Source of the DNA: Candidatus Yanofskybacteria bacterium RIFCSPHIGHO2_01_FULL_43_32
GTDB lineage: Bacteria; Patescibacteriota; Minisyncoccia; 2-02-FULL-40-12; GWA2-44-9
DNA length: 61,102 nucleotides
Assembly: GCA_001794125.1 (NCBI GenBank)
Contig: MGJF01000004.1
Span: 1-61,102, forward strand
Direction of reading: 5' to 3'
Position 1 is the first letter of the stretch; every line of letters begins with the position of its first letter. The position numbers were made by a program, and so were the translations under genes. Of the stretch, positions 3,418 through 46,064 are shown one piece after another. A model generated the notes under the pieces. The model searched no databases. It saw only the letters and a program-made list of their open reading frames with translations, and was not told the origin of the DNA.

Positions 3418-4104
3418 ATGAAATTAAATATTAAAGAACTACTCGATTTTCTTGATGATAAGAAAGATTCCCAAATGGGTGATGCCAATGCCATAATTGC
3501 TGTTCTCGGTGAGGATTTAAACGCTTCTGCATATAAACATTTTAGAGGAGGTAAGGTAGAAATTCTTAATGATTCAGTTCTTCCCGGTACTAATAAGGGT
3601 AAAAGATTAGATCGATGGATATTAGATAAGACTAATAATAATTTATTTCAATGTGAGATTAAGAATTGGGCAGCAACCGCCATTGGAGGTAAGTCATTGA
3701 AATCTGATGCAAGTATTGAAGAAACTAAAAAGATTGTTGAATATTACTGGAAACGCGAATTAAATAACAACCTTTCAAGCAAGGGGGAACACCCAAATGG
3801 TGTTACCAAGGTATTGCTTAAAATGAAACTACCTGACAAGCACAGTAAAATAAAGGTTCAACCGCTACTTATCTATTGGATGCCAATTTCTTCAGATATA
3901 GACGGGTTACATCCATTATCTGTTGTTTCTGTAAAATCACTTCATTTACCAATGGTGACTGAATTTTCAAAACTTTATGTTTTTTCTGTGTCCCTATACC
4001 TTCGCCAGTTGTATAAAAACGGGAAGGGGCAAAAACTTATTGACATAGACACACCACATTTTGAACATAGAATTAAAATATTAAATAAATTGGGGGATAA
4101 ATAA
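3418..4104 (+). CDS. putative PD-(D/E)XK nuclease-like protein
   Basis: RLDRWI...FQCEIKNW resembles the D...E-x-K catalytic motif; own TTGACT-N17-TATAAT promoter. Confidence 0.5.
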   Translation: MKLNIKELLDFLDDKKDSQMGDANAIIAVLGEDLNASAYKHFRGGKVEILNDSVLPGTNKGKRLDRWILDKTNNNLFQCEIKNWAATAIGGKSLKSDASIEETKKIVEYYWKRELNNNLSSKGEHPNGVTKVLLKMKLPDKHSKIKVQPLLIYWMPISSDIDGLHPLSVVSVKSLHLPMVTEFSKLYVFSVSLYLRQLYKNGKGQKLIDIDTPHFEHRIKILNKLGDK

Positions 4105-4607: not shown

Positions 4608-4968
4608 GCCATTATTGCAGGTTCTTAAATGCTCATAAGTCCGCCGGTCGGCGGTGTGAATATTTAAGAATCTAACAATTTGCCCCCAATTGTTTTGTCC
4701 AGAATCAATCGAATAATTTAATATAAAGAATCCGTCAAGCACGACAGGAGAGAGCGTGTTTGTTAAGTTTTTGTCCAAGAGCGAAAGCGATTGGAAACAA
4801 AAAGTTAACCCAGCCCCACTTTTCATAATTAAACATACTGGTCATCGTATGGCATGGTACATGCGTTACGGTTGCTTGTGGAGTTTGAAAATTAAAAGTG
4901 GAGCTGGGTGACAATTTTCTAACAACTCAGCGTCGCAGAAACTGCTTGCCTCGTTGAGAAAATAAGTC

Positions 4969-7900
4969 ATGCGTAAAATCTTCTCAAAATTTGGCATCGA
5001 CCAATTTGAAGCCCCAAATTTGGTGCAGGTCCAATTGGATTCGTATAAGTGGTTTTTGGATACCGGCTTAAGGGAGTTGTTGAAGGAAGTTTCTCCAACC
5101 GAGGACTGGACCGGCAAAGAACTTGAACTGCGATTTTTGGATTACAAACTGGACGAGCCCAAATACAAAGAAAGAACGGCGATAGAAAAAAATATCACCT
5201 ACGAAGCGCCCCTAAAGGTCAAAGTGGGATTAAGAAACAAGAGAACCGACCAGTATAAAGAGCAAGAATTGTTCCTTTCGGATTTTCCCCTCATGACTCC
5301 GAGAGGAACTTTTATTATTAACGGAGTGGAAAGGGTTGTCATTTCCCAGCTTATCCGCAGCCCCGGCGTTTTCTTCTCGATGTCCCGATCTTCAAGATTA
5401 AAAAGATTTTTCGGGGCGAAACTCATTCCTTCCCGCGGCGCCTGGCTGGAATTCGAAACCGAATACAATGGAGTCATCTCCTGCAGGATAGACAGAAAAA
5501 GAAAAGTTCCCGCGACGGCTTTGTTGAGGGCTTTTGGCATAACCAAAGACGAGGAAATAAAAAAACTTTTTGAAGATGTTGACACCGATCCCAATGTTAA
5601 ATACATCTTAGCCACAATATTGGCAGATCCTTCTTCAAATGAAGAGGAAGGATTGATAGAACTCTATAAAAGAATCCGCCCGGGAGATCCGGCTACTCCC
5701 GACAATGCCCGGCAGATGGTCCATAATTTATTCTTCAATGCTTCCCGGTACGATCTTTCCAAGGTCGGCCGCTTCAGAATGAACAAGAGATTTAACGAAG
5801 AACTTGCTTTGGATAAGACCGAAAACAGAATCCTTCGCAAAGAAGACATAGTTTTAATATTAAGAGAGATAATTAATCTCAACAACAATCCGTCATCGGT
5901 GCCGGACAACATAGACCATTTGGGCAATCGAAGGGTTAAGACGCTCGGCGAACTTTTACAGGACAGATTGAGGATTGCTTTTGCCCGAATGGAAAGAATA
6001 ACCAAAGACAGAATGTCCACCTCGGACATCGCGACCATTCTTCCTTCCCAGCTTATAAACGCCAGACCCTTTGTTGCCGCCCTGAAAGAGTTCTTCGCTT
6101 CCGGTCAGTTGTCCCAATTCATGGACCAGCATAATCCTTTATCCGAGCTGGAACACAAGAGAAGGTTATCCGCTCTCGGCCCCGGAGGTTTAACCAGAGA
6201 AAGAGCGAGTTTTGAAGTTCGAGACGTTCACCCTTCCCACTACGGAAGGATTTGTCCCATCGCCACTCCGGAAGGTCCGAACATCGGTCTGGTCGGACAC
6301 CTGTCTTTATATGCCAAGATATCGGATCTCGGTTTTATTCTTACTCCTTACAGAAAGGTAATCAAAGGAAAGGTTACCGATGAACTTGTTTATATGGACG
6401 CGGTTGAAGAGGAAAGATATATCATTGCCTCGGCGGGAGCCGAAGTAGACAAGAATAACCAATTGGCCGGCGACGAGATAGTCGGACGTATTCACGGCGA
6501 GCCGGGAACCGCCGAACCAAAAGACGTTCAGTATATGGACATTTCTCCAAGGCAAATGTTCTCGGTCTCGACTTCTCTGATACCGTTTTTGGAACACGAT
6601 GACGCTAACCGCGCTCTGATGGGTTCCAACATGCAAAGACAGGCTGTGCCTCTTATCCAGCCCGAATCTCCTTATGTCGGAACCGGTCTTGAAGGCAAAG
6701 TGGCTAAAGATTCGGGAATGGTTGTGGTCGCCAATGAAGCGGGAACCATTACGGCCGCGGACGCTTCTCGTATTGTTTTGGAAACCGAAAAAGGAAAAGA
6801 ATACGAACATAAACTTTTGAAATTCGCCCGTTCCAACGCTTTTACCTGTTTGAATCAGAGAGTTTTGGTCAAAAAAGGCGATAAGGTAAAGAAGGGCCAG
6901 GCCTTGGCCGACGGGCCGTCGACTCAAGACGGAGAGATTGCCTTAGGCAAAAACCTCGTTGTGGCCTACATGTCTTATGAGGGATGCAATTTCCAGGATG
7001 CTATCGTCATCTCGGAACGGCTCGTAAAAGAAGATGTTTTCTCGTCCATCCATATAGAAGATTATTCGACAGACGTCAGAGAGACCAAGCTTGGTCCGGA
7101 ACTGACCACATATGACATTCCCAATGTCGCCATGGAAAGACTGAATGACCTTGATCCGGACGGAATCGTAAGAGTCGGAGCCGAAGTCCGTTCCCAGGAT
7201 ATTCTCGTCGGTAAAATTTCTCCGAAAGGCGAAAGCGATCTTACTGCTGAAGAAAGATTATTGAGAGCGATATTCGGAGATAAATCCAGAGATGTTAAGG
7301 ACTCTTCATTGCGATTGGATTACGGCAAACAGGGACGCGTCGTGGACGTTAAGGTTTTTTCAAGAGAAGAGGGAGACAAGCTGGATGTCGGGGTAATTAA
7401 GAAAATCCAGGTTTCAGTCGCTCAATTAAGAAAAGCCCAGGTCGGAGACAAGTTAGCCGGAAGACACGGCAACAAGGGCGTTATTTCAACAATTCTGCCC
7501 GAAGAAGATATGCCGTTCCTGGAAGACGGAACTCCTGTGGACATTATTTTAAGTCCTTTGGGCATTATTTCCCGTATGAATATCGGACAGGTTCTTGAAT
7601 CCCATCTTGGTATTGCCGCCAAAAAGCTCGGCTACAAAGCCGCCACCCCAGCCATGGCCGGTCCGACCGAAGAAACAATTAAAGAAGAACTTGAGAAAGC
7701 CGGATATCCGGTGGACGGCAAGATGCAATTATACGACGGAAAGACTGGAAAGGCCTACGATGCCAAATGTCATGTCGGAGTAACCTATTTTATGAAACTG
7801 ATTCACATGGTTGAAGACAAGCTTCATATGCGTTCAATCGGGCCTTACTCATTGATTACTCAACAACCCTTGGGGGGTAAGGCGCAGTTCGGAGGACAGA

Positions 7901-11720: not shown

Positions 11721-11849
11721 GAATAGCTCACACAACCTCTATACGTACGGAGGGAGACACCTTTTTAAAAATTTACTAATTTTGTAAAAAGTGTCTCCCT
11801 CCGCCGGTTGTTTACTTGATAGTTGGCAATTGGCAAGCGAGTTCAAACT
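11721..11849 (+). repeat. long-hairpin element E, copy 2
   Basis: cggagggagacac...gtgtctccctccg stem; immediately after rpoC stop. Confidence 0.85.
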
Positions 11850-11858
11850 AAATATACC

Positions 11859-11886
11859 TCAACGGCTCACACATGTGAGCCGTTGA
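11859..11886. repeat. 28-bp palindrome P28 (TCAACGGCTCA-cacatg-TGAGCCGTTGA)
   Basis: perfect 11-bp arms, 6-bp spacer. Confidence 0.9.
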
Positions 11887-13219: not shown

Positions 13220-13246
13220 CCTCACTCTCTTGGATTATGACAAACC

Positions 13247-13274
13247 TCAACGGCTCACACATGTGAGCCGTTGA
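13247..13274. repeat. P28 copy (spacer cacatg)
   Basis: identical to 11859-11886. Confidence 0.9.
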
Positions 13275-19527: not shown

Positions 19528-19555
19528 TCAACGGCTCACATGTGTGAGCCGTTGA
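19528..19555. repeat. P28 copy (spacer catgtg, inverted relative to 11859 and 13247)
   Basis: tcaacggctcacatgtgtgagccgttga; right edge of the AT-rich island. Confidence 0.9.
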
Positions 19556-19583
19556 GGACTGGCCGCTTAGTTAATCATGTTTT

Positions 19584-22805: not shown

Positions 22806-23813
22806 ATGTCAGCCAAGAAACCGGCAACAACCGAAAACAAGCACGTCGATATGACAGTCAAAGAGATTCAGGAGAAGTATGGCGAAGGGTCTTTAATGCG
22901 TTTGGGTGAGGTAAAGAGGGTCAATGTGGACGTAATTCCGACAGGTTCTATTTCTTTAGACTTAGCCTTAGGAGTAGGTGGAATACCAAGAGGCAGAGTT
23001 ATAGAAATATACGGTCCTGAAAGTTCCGGTAAGACAACCCTTTGTTTGCATATTGTTGCCGAAGCCCAAAAAAGGGGCGGAGTCGCCGCATACATTGACG
23101 CTGAACACGCTCTGGATCCTGAATATGCCAAGAAGATAGGGGTTAATTTGGGAAACCTTTTGATATCCCAACCGGATACTGGCGAACAGGCGTTAGATAT
23201 AGTAGAGTCATTGGTTAAATCAGGAGGTATAGATGTTATCGTGATTGATTCAGTGGCGGCACTGACCCCGAGAGCGGAAATAGAGGGGGAGATGGACCAG
23301 CAGCATATGGGTTTGCAAGCAAGGTTGATGTCTCACGCTTTGAGAAAACTTACCGCTATTGTTGCCAAGTCCAATACCTCAATAATTTTTATTAACCAAT
23401 TAAGAATGAAGATTGGAATCATGTTTGGAAATCCCGAGACGACTCCGGGCGGAATGGCTTTGAAATTTTATTCTTCCGTCAGAATTGAAATTAGAAAAGC
23501 CGCCCAGATACAGGCTGCCGAAAAGATAGTGGGGAACAGGGTTAAGGTGAAAATAGTTAAGAACAAAATTGCCCCTCCGTTCAGAACTTGCGAGTTTGAT
23601 ATCCTGTATAACGAAGGCATCTCGCGATATTCCGATGTCGTGAATACCGGAGTTAAATTTGGTGTTCTTGCCAAAGCAGGCAGCTGGTATAATTATGGCG
23701 AGCAAAAATTAGGCCAAGGCGTAGAGGGCTCGCGGCAATTTCTCAAAGAAAATCCAAAGCTTGAAAAGGAGATAGTGGGCAAGATTAAAGAAGCAGCAAT
23801 ATTAGAAGCTTAG
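22806..23813 (+). CDS. recA: recombinase RecA
   Basis: [31 protein letters not shown]. Confidence 0.99.
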
Positions 23814-23818
23814 AGCTT

Positions 23819-23880
23819 GCCCCGCACCAAACTTATCCGCTAACCGCCATTAAGAAAGGGGGCGGGTTTGGTGCGGGGTC
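23819..23880. repeat. ~63-bp CCCCGCACCAA...TTGGTGCGGGG hairpin element, copy 1
   Basis: homologous to 27621-27685 and 38268-38330. Confidence 0.85.
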
Positions 23881-26418: not shown

Positions 26419-26446
26419 TCAACGGCTCACATATGTGAGCCGTTGA
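26419..26446. repeat. P28 copy (spacer catatg); left arm overlaps the rpsF -35 box
   Basis: minus strand reads TTGACA-N17-TAATAT toward rpsF. Confidence 0.85.
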
Positions 26447-26455
26447 TTTGTTGCA

Positions 26456-26588
26456 GAATAGTTCACACAACCTCCATGCATACGGAGGGAGACGTCTTTT
26501 TAAAAATTTACTAATTTTGTAAAAAGTGTCTCCCTCCGCTGGTTGCTTTGGTTGTTAAGTGATGATTGGCACTAGAAGGTCAAACTCT
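26456..26588 (+). repeat. element E, copy 3
   Basis: near-identical to copy 2. Confidence 0.85.
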
Positions 26589-26801
26589 CTCTGATATTTT
26601 CAAGTCAAAATTATTACCCCTATGTCCAGTGTAGGGGTAGATTTATTATTTTGGAATACATATCCAATCAACTTCAGCTCTTGATTCGCCTCGTCAAAGT
26701 GATTCGAAATGATGAGGCTGCGCTTGATACTCCAATGCTTGCTTTATTTAAAACATATTGTATAATAAAGTAGCTTAGTTCTTTTAAGGAATGGGTGACG
26801 G

Positions 26802-27446: not shown

Positions 27447-27594
27447 TACTTTATTTCAGAAGAGTTTGAATCTTAATTGCCAAATATCAAATATTTACTA
27501 AGCAACCGGCGGAGGGCGTGTGCTTTTTTAAAATTAGTAATATTTTAAAAAAGTGCACCCCGCAGTCATGTATAGAGGTTGTGTGAGCGATTCT
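27447..27594 (-). repeat. element E, copy 4 (inverted)
   Basis: reverse complement nearly identical to copy 1. Confidence 0.85.
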
Positions 27595-27620: not shown

Positions 27621-27685
27621 CCCCGGCACCAAGCTAATCCGCTGACCGCCATTAAGAAAAGGGGCGGGCTTGGTGCGGGGCAGGC
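27621..27685. repeat. 63-bp hairpin element, copy 2
   Basis: ccccggcaccaagc...gcttggtgcgggg. Confidence 0.85.
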
Positions 27686-27690
27686 ATCGC

Positions 27691-28662
27691 CTATATTTTT
27701 ATCTCTACAACATCTCCTTCGGTGATGATATAGTCCCGGCCGACGGTGCGGACGAGGCCTTTAGAGCGGGCGGGGACGAGGCCACCGGCTTCAAGAAGTG
27801 TTTTCCAATTTATGACCTCGGCGCGGATAAATAACTTTTCAAAATCGGTGTGGATGGCGCGGGAAGCCTTCGGTATCGCTTCGCCTTCATGGGCGGTCCA
27901 AGCGCGGGTCTCGTCTTCTCCGGTTGTAAGAAAGGTGACCAACCCTAAGGTCTTGTAGCTTTGTTTGATAAGACGGTCCAAGCCGGGTTCTTTCATATTG
28001 AAACCTGCCAGATATTCTTTTTTTTCGTCTTCGGTTGCTTCGGATAAGATCAGTTCAAGCGGAGTAGAAAGAACAACATAGTCCCTTCCGTTCATAGCCT
28101 CCAATAATTTATCGTCCGGCTGCCAGTTGGCAGACATTTGGGATTCTGAAACATTTAAAACAAAAATAACCTTTTTCTCGCTCAATAAATCCAATTCCGG
28201 CAATTCGCCAGCTGGTGAACTTTTTTTCTTGTCTGCCCTTTTTTCTTTTGTTTGAAGGTCGGCAAGATCCAGTTCGGTCTGGATAATTTCTATGTCGCCG
28301 ACGGGGTCGATTTTGTTGTGGACGTGGGTAATATTCTTGTCTTCAAAAACTCTGACAACATGGGCGATGGCGTCAACTTCACGGATATTGGCAAGGAATT
28401 TATTTCCAAGACCTTCGCCTTGCGAGGCGCCTTTCACCAGTCCGGCAATATCATAGAATTCTATGGTCGTATTTATTATCTTTTTTGAATTTGAAAGTTC
28501 GGCCAAAGGCTTCAGGCGTTCATCGGGCACGGCAACAACACCGACATTCGGGTCAATGGTAGTGAAGGGATAATTCTGAATATCAACCTGCTTGTTTGTC
28601 AGAGCTTTAAAGAGCGTGGATTTACCCACATTCGGAAGTCCGACGATGCCTATCGAAAGCAT
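27691..28662 (-). CDS. ychF: Obg-like ATPase YchF (short coiled-coil)
   Basis: [30 protein letters not shown]-terminal TGS domain. Confidence 0.95.
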
Positions 28663-37879: not shown

Positions 37880-38917
37880 TTATTCTAATCCCATCTTTTC
37901 TTTTACTTCTTTTAGTGTAGAACCGGCTAATGCTTTAGCTTTTTCTTCGGATTTTATTAAAATAGACATAACGTAGTCAGGATTTTTCTTGAGTTCGTTA
38001 TATTTTTCCTGAAACGGTTTCAAAAAGCCCACAACAACTTCGGCGAGGTCGTTCTTGAAGTCCGCATATGATTTGCCTTCGTATTCGGCTTCAATGTTTT
38101 TTATCTCTTTTCCCGAGAGCATGTGGAAGATGGTGATAAGATTTGAGATTGCCGGCTTTTCTTCCTCGTTGTAGTAAACTTCTTTTCCGGAGTCGGTGAC
38201 GGCTTTTTTAATTTTTAACCTAATCTCATTTGGAGTATCAACTAGAAAAATACAACTATCGTCTCCGGCCTGCCCCGCACCAAGCCCGTCCCCTTTGCTG
38301 GCGGTCAGCGGATCAGCTTGGTGCGGGGTCTTGGACATTTTTTTGCCCGGATCCTGGAGGGACATTATTCTGGCACCTTCAGTCAGTTTTGCTTTGACCG
38401 GTTCAAATGTCTGGCCGAACATGGAATTAAATTTTTTGGCAATCTCGTTGGCTAAGTCGATGTGGGGCATCTGATCTTCTCCGACAGGAACAAGATTGGA
38501 TTTATAAATTAAAATATCGGCGGCCATTAAAACGGGATAATCTAAAAGCCCCATGTGGTTGTACTTGGGGGATTTGGCGAGCTGTTCTTTATGGGTAGGC
38601 AGGCGATCCAGCCAGCTCACCGGTGTAATCGTATTAAATATCCAAGCGAGTTCCGTATGCTGGGAGACTTTTGACTGGCGGATAAGGAGTGCTTTGTCGG
38701 GGTCAACTCCGGCGGCTAAATAATCCAAAACTACGTCCATGACTTGCCCGCGGTATTTCTTTGGGTCAAAAGGGGTAGTAATGCCGTGGTAGTCCACAAC
38801 GGCAAAAATTGCCTGGTCGGTTTTGTCCTGAAGTTCAATCCAGTTTTTGATGGCTCCGAGGTAGTTGCCGAGATGCAATTTTCCCGACGGTCTTATGCCA
38901 GAAAACACTTTGGTCAT
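37880..38917 (-). CDS. trpS: tryptophan--tRNA ligase with in-frame palindromic insertion
   Basis: SGIRPSGKLHLGNY, VPVGEDQ, KKMSK; start chosen at MTKVF. Confidence 0.96.
   Translation of the reverse strand: MTKVFSGIRPSGKLHLGNYLGAIKNWIELQDKTDQAIFAVVDYHGITTPFDPKKYRGQVMDVVLDYLAAGVDPDKALLIRQSKVSQHTELAWIFNTITPVSWLDRLPTHKEQLAKSPKYNHMGLLDYPVLMAADILIYKSNLVPVGEDQMPHIDLANEIAKKFNSMFGQTFEPVKAKLTEGARIMSLQDPGKKMSKTPHQADPLTASKGDGLGAGQAGDDSCIFLVDTPNEIRLKIKKAVTDSGKEVYYNEEEKPAISNLITIFHMLSGKEIKNIEAEYEGKSYADFKNDLAEVVVGFLKPFQEKYNELKKNPDYVMSILIKSEEKAKALAGSTLKEVKEKMGLE
38268..38330 (-). repeat. 63-bp hairpin element, copy 3, in frame in trpS
   Basis: encodes TPHQADPLTASKGDGLGAGQA directly after KKMSK. Confidence 0.85.
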
Positions 38918-39001
38918 TAAATTAAATAATAACCTAAAGACAATGAAAAACAAAGTGGATTGACACGGGTGTATATTATATTAAAGTTCTAAATAAGTTC
39001 A

Positions 39002-44089: not shown

Positions 44090-44221
44090 CAACCTCCATG
44101 CATGCGGAGGGAGACGCCTTTTTAAAAATTGATTAATTTTGTAAAAAGTGTCTCCCTCCGCTGGTTGTTTGGTTAAATAGATGACAACTGGCAATAGAGA
44201 TTCAAACTCTCTTGGAATAAG
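44090..44221 (+). repeat. element E, copy 5 (5' end replaced by CCTGCC palindrome)
   Basis: gcggagggagac...gtctccctccgc stem. Confidence 0.8.
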
Positions 44222-44304
44222 GTGTCATAGAATTCTTCTTTTGACCATAAAACACAACCGTGCTAATATAGACGATAATCTCTGTTCTTTTCCAAGGAGA
44301 TTTC

Positions 44305-44562: not shown

Positions 44563-44692
44563 GTTTGACCTTTTCTTATCAATTGTCATTTAGCTACCAA
44601 AACAACCGGCGAAGGGTGTGCCCTTTTATAAAATTGCAAGATTTTAGAAAAGGGGCACCCCGCAGCATGCATAGAGGTTGTGTGAACCTATC
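44563..44692 (-). repeat. element E, copy 6 (inverted), overlapping the uvrC stop
   Basis: same conserved flanks as the other copies. Confidence 0.8.
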
Positions 44693-46064
44693 TTAGATAT
44701 TTTCTGTGCAGTTTTCTGTAATATCCAATCGCGAAGCGATGGGCTTCGCTATCAATGGCAAGGAGGAGGTTTCTGTCGGCGGGGGAGAGTTTGGTTAGGG
44801 GAACGGTTCGCCATCCGCCCGAATTGGCGGAGGCGGATTTTCTGCCCGGGACAATCAGCTGGTGGCCCATGTGGCGCTCGTTTTTGGAAATACCGATAAT
44901 TTGAATTTTGATGGCCAGTTTTTTGAGTGTTTTAACTGCCGCACTAACCTGACCCTTGCCCCCGTCAATAAGTATCAAGTCCGGGAACGGCCATTCTTCG
45001 TGCCGGAAACGCCGTTCAAGTATTTCGCGTAGCATTGCCGTGTCGTCGGGAGTTTGTTTGGTATAAATCTTAAACTTTCTGTAAAAATTCTTATCCGGCT
45101 GGCCGTGAACGAATGTAACCATGGAGCCGGTGGCATGGGCGCCTTGAATATTGGAAACATCGTAACCTTCTATACGGACTATTGGTTTTTGCAATTTTAG
45201 CAAAGATTCCAATCCGGAATGTTGGGTTTTTAAAATGTCGGAGCTTTTTATTATTCTGGAATTCTCGAATATTTTTTCCAATTTTGTTATTTTGTCGCGC
45301 AACTCTATGGCTTTTCCAAAGTCGTCTTTTTTAGCGGCATTGCCGGCCTCTTTCCCGAGTTCTTTTACGAAAGAATTCTTTTTCCCGTTCAATATTTCCC
45401 TGACAGCATTTATGTTGTCTGCGTATGCTTTTTTGTCTTTGCTTGAAGTTCCTGATTTTAAACAGCAAAATCCCAAACACTTTCCAATGTGGTAATTAAG
45501 ACAGCGGTTGTGATGAAGCTGTTTACAGGTGCAATATGGAAAAACCGAGCGCAGAAAACGCAGGGTTGTTTTTAAAGCGCCCCCGTCAGTAAAAGGACCT
45601 ATGAAATGTGTATTAAACAAACGAGGGGTGGCCCGAGTGGGGACCCCGGTCGCGTGGAGGTCTAGCAAGACCGAACCCGTCCGGGGTGATGAGGGGCAGG
45701 CCCCCGAAGTCCGTGTTTGATGAGTGATAAAAATCTTTGGGAAATTTTCATTACTGAAGCCGACATAAAAATACTGTTTGTCATCCCGCATCACGATATT
45801 GAACTGCGGGCGATATTTTTTTATCAATTGTGATTCAAGTATTAATGCCTCAATATCCGATTGAGTAGAAATAAATTTCAACGTTTGAGACAACCCCACC
45901 ATTTTTTTAATTCTAAAATCTTTCGTTTTTAAATACGAACCAAGCCGGATTTTTAAATTGGAGGCCTTGCCTATGTACAAATATTTTTTGGCATCCTTGA
46001 ATATGTAAATTCCCGGGTTGGACGGTAGTTTCGGTATGTATTTTTTGAGCGCGGCTTGATTCAT
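44688..46064 (-). CDS. uvrC: excinuclease UvrC (short, no HhH; two in-frame insertions)
   Basis: PGIYIFK..YIGKASNL GIY-YIG, CTC..CLNYHIGKC, UVR domain, RIEGYDVSN, LILIDGGKGQ. Confidence 0.92.
   Translation of the reverse strand: MNQAALKKYIPKLPSNPGIYIFKDAKKYLYIGKASNLKIRLGSYLKTKDFRIKKMVGLSQTLKFISTQSDIEALILESQLIKKYRPQFNIVMRDDKQYFYVGFSNENFPKIFITHQTRTSGACPSSPRTGSVLLDLHATGVPTRATPRLFNTHFIGPFTDGGALKTTLRFLRSVFPYCTCKQLHHNRCLNYHIGKCLGFCCLKSGTSSKDKKAYADNINAVREILNGKKNSFVKELGKEAGNAAKKDDFGKAIELRDKITKLEKIFENSRIIKSSDILKTQHSGLESLLKLQKPIVRIEGYDVSNIQGAHATGSMVTFVHGQPDKNFYRKFKIYTKQTPDDTAMLREILERRFRHEEWPFPDLILIDGGKGQVSAAVKTLKKLAIKIQIIGISKNERHMGHQLIVPGRKSASANSGGWRTVPLTKLSPADRNLLLAIDSEAHRFAIGYYRKLHRKYLR

Follow-up and report, generated by a model that had tools for sequence, protein, structure and literature searches.

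A palindromic repeat in frame beside the KMSKS loop of tryptophanyl-tRNA synthetase in a candidate phyla radiation bacterium

How can an essential class I aminoacyl-tRNA synthetase carry a run of foreign residues beside its catalytic loop? The question is raised by trpS, the tryptophanyl-tRNA synthetase (TrpRS) gene of Candidatus Yanofskybacteria bacterium RIFCSPHIGHO2_01_FULL_43_32, a member of the Patescibacteria or candidate phyla radiation (CPR), in a window of 61,102 nucleotides (nt) that spans positions 1 to 61,102 of contig MGJF01000004.1 (assembly GCA_001794125.1). The window is contig C4 of the organism's own genome (G000; 762 kb in 13 contigs, rated 100% complete with 0.58% contamination), and the TrpRS records closest to its protein are named Candidatus Yanofskybacteria or Paceibacterota. 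An original prediction, made from the sequence letters, had placed a hairpin repeat in frame at the KMSKS loop, and comparison of filled with empty sites and with other copies of the repeat bears this out. We hold it to be highly probable that the 60-nt stretch in trpS is a copy of a lineage-specific, selfish-looking palindromic repeat that resembles the Rickettsia palindromic elements (RPEs) and the intragenic repetitive extragenic palindromes (REPs); this degree of confidence covers the reading as a whole, i.e., a palindrome of that kind which is translated through and tolerated.

The trpS gene lies on the reverse strand (37880..38917), starts with an ATG at 38917 and encodes 345 residues (PF00579, E 7e-64); a mechanical list of open reading frames (ORFs) begins it at TTG 38953 (357 residues, the extra part being 38918-38953), while homologues and the database cluster place the start at the ATG. 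The closest solved structures to its product are those of bacterial TrpRS (E 2e-74), KMSK is invariant in the TrpRS alignment, and the HIGH-type motif is present as HLGN; PF00579, both motifs and the TrpRS fold mark the enzyme as a class I synthetase. Its class I signature is intact and reads KMSKT (K193-M-S-K-T197; 38327..38341, reverse strand). Immediately after it comes the palindromic element, 60 nt in frame (38267..38326, reverse strand), which encodes residues 198-217 (PHQADPLTASKGDGLGAGQA); its boundary carries a 2-nt ambiguity (CC), so that 38269-38328 is an equally valid placement. The insert matches the covariance model of the element at 76.9 bits (E 5e-17). Its two 13-nt stem arms lie at 38273..38285 (CCCCGCACCAAGC on the plus strand) and 38316..38328 (GCTTGGTGCGGGG on the plus strand, with a 2-nt overlap with the Thr197 codon), and the RNA fold of this copy has an energy of -38.9 kcal/mol (z = -4.3). 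Downstream of the insert the protein continues with GDDSCIFLVD.

At the empty site in relatives, AAG AC(C/G/T) is followed by GGx GAx GAG, which reads KMSKT then GDEGIALSD, with ACC, ACG or ACT as the Thr codon; about 75 of the 119 TrpRS homologues have this arrangement and no insert. In filled alleles the gap between Thr and Gly measures 60 nt in the window, L018, P0002, P0003 and P0053, and 63 nt in P0004, P0008 and P0026. The length proposed at the outset for the window copy (63 nt or 21 residues, 38268-38330) is therefore that of some relatives, and here it is 60 nt and 20 residues. Also to be withdrawn is the proposal that the element turned the Ser of KMSKS into Thr: because the insert-free relatives have KMSKT as well, Thr is, judging from the alignment, ancestral in the clade and no product of the element. 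Bacteria further away have KMSKS, followed by a linker three residues longer than in the clade.

The element has further copies in the window, as had been predicted, in the intergenic regions by recA and ychF. The first (23820..23878, plus strand) begins 7 nt past the stop codon of recA (22806-23813, plus strand), and the second (27622..27685, plus strand, its 3' CAGGC tail counted in) is flanked by convergent genes, with the stop codon of ychF (27691-28662, minus strand) 5 nt away. The 13-nt arm motif has eight matches in the window against 0.95 expected, a number reached in 0 of 100 shuffles. Searches with nhmmer and a covariance model (R1) found 10 copies in G000; within the family, model R1 detected the element in 10 of 23 genera and 24 of 62 genomes, with 1-26 copies per genome, and it detected none in 43 genomes belonging to the other families of the order. 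Its consensus is A-CCCCGCACCAAGC-TTAT-CCGC-TGACCGCCATTCAGAAAGGGG-GCGG-GCTTGGTGCGGGG-CARG, i.e., a 59-nt hairpin in which an outer stem of 13 bp is separated by a bulge of 4 nt from an inner stem of 4 bp that closes a 21-nt loop, with CARG as the 3' tail. Measured from the first C to CARG, the commonest length is 63 nt (21 codons), and of the three frames in the sense orientation two are free of stops. Among 90 distinct copies the loop CTGACCGCCA is nearly invariant, 94.4% of stem cells are paired, and both sides have changed in 10 of the 17 stem pairs (113 cells); these pairing and covariation values were matched by 0 of 500 shuffles, and slid registers fell far off as well.

Flanking sequences were retrieved for 97 strong copies (loci L081-L167 and those of G000), and a copy was counted as genic when the open frame around it extended for 40 codons or more in both directions. 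By this definition 37 of the 97 copies are genic, and in 34 of these 37 it is the element's sense strand that codes (binomial p 1e-7), so that it is read as TPHQxxPLTAIxKGGGxGAGQ or (D/N)PAPSLSADRHSEKGRAWxGA. Length is divisible by three in 33 of 35 genic versus 42 of 55 intergenic copies, while stem pairing is alike in the two classes (94.5% and 94.3%). Twenty of the fetched hosts were confirmed with Pfam: RmuC, two Mur ligases, UDP-glucose dehydrogenase, Dus, UvrB, a nucleotidyltransferase, DnaG, PolA, an FAD oxidase, UvrD, Ddl, KsgA, a GT2 glycosyltransferase, PGI, GluRS (gltX), a GTPase, BacA/UppP, PriA and a PMT-family glycosyltransferase. Insertion sites in dnaG, uvrD, dus, the UDP-glucose dehydrogenase gene, the PMT-family gene and trpS are common to several genera. 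Within G000 the in-frame hosts are trpS (identified by Pfam) together with pheS (C7:1573-1634) and a PAP2-type phosphatase gene (C6:2041-2104), the latter two named from sequence motifs; in pheS the insert sits in a hairpin turn of variable length, with conserved segments on either side. The element is thus a family-wide in-frame invader of many essential genes, and this is the real explanation of the trpS insert.

The intergenic copies (n = 60) are placed differently: 17 lie between convergent genes, 29 between co-directional and 6 between divergent ones, and 24 of the 29 co-directional copies are antisense to the genes. The orientation preference is therefore opposite in genic and intergenic copies (Fisher p 5e-10). 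Since the element leaves two of three frames open whichever way it is read, stop codons do not account for the difference. Uniform strand-specific insertion, as in IS200/IS605, is ruled out by these opposite preferences.

As to the mechanism, we propose that 60 nt were placed between the Thr197 codon of KMSKT and the next Gly codon of the only trpS. A length divisible by three, together with two sense frames that lack stops, would have kept the gene intact; the mRNA would be read straight through the insert, and the 20 Gly/Ala/Pro/Asp-rich residues would extend, disordered and exposed to solvent, from the C-terminal hinge of the mobile KMSKS loop. The catalytic KMSK(T) residues themselves are untouched. 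The evidence for translation and tolerance is as follows: i) A search for a second trpS, which the original prediction had called for, found none in G000 by tblastn, the PF00579 matches of this genome, rated complete, being TyrRS and the TrpRS of the window alone; trpS is the sole copy also in the insert-bearing genomes G042 and G038 (PF00579); ii) Outside the insert, the proportion of nonsynonymous differences (pN) is 0.157 versus a saturated proportion of synonymous differences (pS) of 0.77 over 28 allele pairs, and the ratio of nonsynonymous to synonymous substitution rates (dN/dS) is 0.03 for the closest pairs; iii) Relatives carry inserts of 8, 9, 11, 12, 14, 17, 21 and 22 residues at the same site, every one of them in frame. 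These include in-frame remnants of 24-33 nt in which the long stem is lost (L004) or shortened (L002), and excision is therefore unlikely, because frame-keeping would be needless if the stretch were removed.

Structure prediction agrees with this picture. The AlphaFold2 model was made on the cluster representative P0001, a protein identical to that of the window in all but one of its 345 residues, the exception lying far from the insert. It has a mean predicted local distance difference test score (pLDDT) of 87.7 and a predicted template modelling score (pTM) of 0.84, and pLDDT falls below 50 at residues 197-218 only. The model superposes on solved bacterial TrpRS with template modelling (TM) scores of 0.89-0.95 and a root-mean-square deviation of about 2 Å, and the solved chains show an 18-residue gap at the insert position. 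A surface loop that the host fold accommodates is thus indicated for TrpRS by model and superposition, and the pheS site is likewise a variable turn. Translation of the insert into a flexible loop at the surface is the most likely outcome, and the view that the enzyme tolerates it, one of the two options originally offered, is well supported by the single trpS, the frame kept in all relatives and the intact fold of the model. That the insert-bearing form has TrpRS activity is what we infer from these sequence data.

Palindromes within genes are documented both as RPEs and as intragenic REPs in uvrA/B/D, polA, dnaE and aminoacyl-tRNA synthetase genes (PMC10969869, PMC3733652). The summaries of the Rickettsia work list RPE-1 to RPE-10 (Ogata et al. 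2000, 2002, summarised in PMC10969869, PMC3733652). Like the RPEs, the CPR element is a palindromic repeat dispersed in several copies over a genome that is small and reduced; a good part of the copies stand in frame in unrelated housekeeping genes that remain unbroken, they decay with time, and they are predicted to occupy loops that the host fold accepts. It is set apart from them by host phylum (CPR/Patescibacteria) and size (63 nt versus roughly 100-150 bp), and it differs further in its marked sense bias (34/37) and in nucleotides more conserved than flanking synonymous sites. Moreover, RPE-bearing proteins are described as expressed in the summaries cited, while expression of the CPR element is a prediction from sequence conservation. 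On size and host it is no member of the Rickettsia RPE family proper, although it works like an RPE.

Compared with intragenic REPs and the REPs linked to REP-associated tyrosine transposases (RAYTs), which are tagged with GTAG/CGTC (Di Nocera et al. 2013, PMC3733652), the element likewise has an imperfect palindrome and, beyond its stem, a short conserved tag. Its intergenic copies are mostly downstream of genes in convergent or co-directional settings, Y1/RAYT-like genes occur in the genomes, and the intragenic copies favour genes of replication and repair (uvrB, uvrD, polA, dnaG, priA) and tRNA synthetases. Unlike REPs, it has no GTAG/CGTC tag (the flanks are 5' A and 3' CARG), its hairpin is 59 nt versus 20-40, its copy number is low (1-26 per genome), and the RAYT-like genes of G000 are flanked by other hairpins. 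Tag, size and RAYT flanks thus separate it from the REP/REPIN-RAYT families, with which it shares the downstream-of-gene placement. Bacterial MITEs (miniature transposable elements with inverted repeats) that have in-frame fusions (Coxiella QMITE, ERIC; PMC5896051, PMC10969869) are also small non-autonomous repeats with inverted termini that can lie within ORFs, but the present element is one whole hairpin instead of two inverted termini around a spacer, and no parent insertion sequence with its termini was found. Its 13-bp inverted termini would suit a MITE, but there is no target-site duplication at trpS beyond the ambiguous CC. Coding palindromes of nematomorph mitochondria (PMC6649704) resemble it in being hairpins within translated sequence, with arm complementarity kept and gains and losses between relatives; they differ in being gene-specific inverted repeats, with both arms encoding conserved host residues and no dispersed-element copies. 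The element is, like the RPEs, a dispersed multi-copy palindrome with in-frame copies in unrelated intact genes, and is best explained as a new family of coding palindromes that resemble RPEs or intragenic REPs; palindromes of this kind have been known since 2000. Among the papers searched, none described such coding palindromes in CPR.

Several observations weigh against this explanation: i) The filled and empty trpS sites show no target-site duplication except possibly the CC already mentioned, and the pheS site is too variable for judging one; ii) No cognate transposase for the element was identified among the candidates of G000 and the family; iii) With a 20-residue loop one residue past its catalytic lysine, the enzyme could be hampered in handling ATP or tRNA, a matter beyond what the model addresses; iv) Within trpS the insert diverges at a pS of only 0.138 and a pN of 0.137, versus a pS of 0.68-0.77 in its flanks, so that it is no passively drifting translated spacer. 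The equality of pN and pS means that the peptide is unconstrained, and the comparison used well-preserved alleles, which biases it towards apparent conservation. The arms vary in compensation between trpS alleles (AAGC/GCTT, AAAC/GTTT, AATC/GATT). The conservation may stem from constraint at the nucleotide level, from recent re-insertion, from ectopic conversion, or from correction of the arms directed by the hairpin, a process considered for other coding palindromes in PMC6649704.

The same data admit a bolder view, in which the element is an actively maintained nucleic-acid structure, part of an undescribed CPR-specific system within essential genes. It is suggested by the equal conservation of all codon positions amid saturated synonymous sites in the flanks, the compensatory stems, the nearly invariant loop and the contrast between sense genic and antisense intergenic copies. 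Two versions would fit: hairpin cassettes of 21 codons are inserted, refreshed or corrected by a structure-specific enzyme, or they are an RNA or DNA signal recruited by the host. We regard this view as unlikely; if true, it would make the trpS site an ancient two-form segment, insert plus adapted strand, recombining across species.

A linked patch of 15 codons directly downstream of the insert (38222..38266, reverse strand; GDDSCIFLVDTPNEI) occurs only in insert-bearing alleles, versus GDEG-IALSDxPDxI, one residue shorter, in insert-free alleles. The GD(D/E)SCIFLVD strand is found in all alleles with a full-length insert, in most of those with a shorter insert and in no insert-free allele. 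Between L001 (P0004) and L168 (P0032), DNA identity is 85-95% along the gene and 42-66% in the ~50 nt 3' of the insert, and within this ~50-nt patch the insert-bearing alleles resemble one another. The patch has the divergence of ordinary, old coding sequence (pS 0.68, pN 0.15). In a TrpRS tree built with the insert masked, insert-bearing alleles are scattered: the nearest relatives of P0004 and P0008 are insert-free (P0032 at 95% and P0073 at 92% identity), while P0004 and P0008 are 74-83% identical to other full-length alleles, and the insert-bearing form spans lineages 65-83% identical to each other. One insertion inherited vertically is ruled out by the insert-free nearest relatives (95% and 92%) of the full-length alleles, and recent lateral transfer of insert plus patch is not supported, the patch being old (pS ~0.68).

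Because insert and patch are mosaic with respect to the remainder of the gene, we infer that related lineages have exchanged them by homologous recombination: an old two-form segment, insert plus adapted strand, would have been shuffled among lineages. The change from GDEGIALSD to GDDSCIFLVD would be a linked compensatory change, and the short inserts would be products of internal deletions. Recurrent insertion at a hot spot with convergent adaptation is a less economical account than recombination of a two-form segment.

A related alternative to the tolerated selfish repeat is that the insert has been co-opted, either as a peptide that tunes the dynamics of the KMSKS loop or offers a docking site, or as an mRNA or DNA hairpin acting as a pause, stability or regulatory signal. 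Conserved nucleotides amid saturated flanks, stems kept equally in genic and intergenic copies, compensatory arm variants, the nearly invariant loop CTGACCGCCA and the linked downstream patch all speak for it. Most close relatives, however, do without the insert (~75/119), it has decayed to 8-14 residues in many lineages, the peptide is unconstrained, and the choice of well-preserved alleles inflates the apparent conservation; arm complementarity, moreover, can be maintained without selection by template switching or hairpin-directed correction, as put forward in the discussion section of PMC6649704. We therefore consider co-option improbable.

The trpS copy might instead be dispensable or dead, either as a nascent pseudogene or because Trp-tRNA comes from another gene or from the host of the putative episymbiont. 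The insert adjoins the catalytic loop, and CPR bacteria rely on hosts for many functions, a dependence that lends this idea some appeal. Against it stand an intact ORF, purifying selection outside the insert (dN/dS ~0.03 in close pairs; pN 0.16 versus saturated pS), the status of only trpS in three genomes (G000, G042 and G038), the persistence of the insert-bearing form in lineages 65-83% identical and the retained HIGH-type and KMSK motifs, which together make it very improbable.

Still less credible is that splicing, RNA processing with ligation, or ribosomal bypassing removes or skips the insert and yields a mature enzyme without the 20 residues, the other option of the original prediction. 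In its favour, the hairpin is very stable, and what is conserved is the nucleotides of the insert, not its peptide (pN = pS). Yet an Rfam scan of the whole window matched a tRNA only and no intron or other family at the element, the insert has no stop codon, and ACC before and GGA after it provide no matched take-off and landing codons. The multiple-of-three length holds in all relatives, including the hairpin-less ones among the 24-33-nt remnants, and in 33 of 35 genic copies. A self-splicing intron, an intein (20 residues here versus at least ~130) and translational bypass were thus each rejected. We know of no bacterial mechanism for excising a 60-nt hairpin from mRNA. Finally, mis-stitching of a repeat into trpS during assembly or binning, one of the refutations considered at the outset, is a fault to which metagenome assemblies are prone at repeats, but its likelihood here is negligible, given the identical 345-residue insert-bearing protein on more than 21 contigs (NCBI, JGI, ENA, Logan), same-site inserts in dozens of independent assemblies, and an insert that is in frame with a co-varying patch alongside.

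Returning to the selfish palindrome as the preferred explanation, candidates for its mobiliser were sought among the genes of the family. Y1/RAYT-like genes (PF01797) are present in 30 of 62 family genomes, and they co-occur with the element (20/4/10/28, Fisher p 1.8e-5, without phylogenetic correction). In G000 both RAYT-like genes have other hairpins, and not the 63-nt element, on their flanks, and elsewhere the nearest element copies seen lie 3.6-5 kb from RAYT-like genes; a Y1/RAYT-like enzyme is thus a weak candidate. Stand-alone GIY-YIG nuclease ORFs (~80-130 residues) occur in all 62 genomes at 1-15 copies, with seven in G000, and were rejected as the element's partner since the counts are unrelated (13 nucleases and no element in G009, 1 and 12 in G018).

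The surroundings of the two RAYT-like genes of G000 are of interest in themselves. The ORF at C5:3916-4623 has a different hairpin, TTCCATAAGCCTTGCTTATGGAA, on both sides (~3880-3915 and 4950-5000), and the downstream one is apparently in frame within a ksgA-like gene (...LLLSSISLAYGRKVNYKVVGNIPYY...), which would be a second, unrelated in-frame hairpin in G000. The ORF at C12:4310-4978 is bracketed by CGACACGCCGTGTCG palindromes in a REPtron-like layout, with yet another repeat.

Variants of the element and of its positions were also observed. At loci L139, L143, L150, L155, L160, L163 and L167 of G042 and G019, 12-48 nt (e.g., PAPSLSADRQSASPADQGRAWGGA) are nested in the element loop with the frame kept, which points to a modular loop or to one insertion placed within an earlier one. 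A 24-nt insert, CCTTCGRCAGGCTCAGGGCARGC (PSxGSGQA), stands in frame at trpS (L004), in the pheS turn (L180) and in ksgA (L130) of different genomes; it has only the 3' GGGCARGC in common with the 63-nt element, and may be a separate short element instead of a decay product. One copy in G000 (C7:24029-24090) ends ~20 nt upstream of the start codon of dnaE, in whose frame it has no stop (TPHQFFPPTTKRRGGIGAGQAQVFN-MSKF...), and is either a copy in the 5' untranslated region or an N-terminal extension. The window holds other repeats: a family of 90-146 nt in both orientations (2626-2771, 11721-11855, 26456-26590, 27448-27593, 44090-44223 and 44563-44694) and perfect palindromes of 28-30 nt, TCAACGGCTCACAyrTGTGAGCCGTTGA (11857-11886, 13245-13274, 19528-19557 and 26419-26446).

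If the 60-nt stretch is such a palindrome, an essential class I synthetase can bear 20 foreign residues one position past its catalytic KMSK, and selfish palindromes of the Rickettsia type in protein genes extend to the ultra-small CPR bacteria, where they would strike much of the machinery for replication and repair as well as two or three aminoacyl-tRNA synthetases. In annotation, the element would account for odd GC-rich Gly/Ala/Pro loops of CPR proteins. The trpS site itself offers a natural series of empty, full and decayed (8-14 residues) forms for studying how proteins absorb insertions, and the same series can be used to ask whether the change from GDEGIALSD to GDDSCIFLVD is compensatory.

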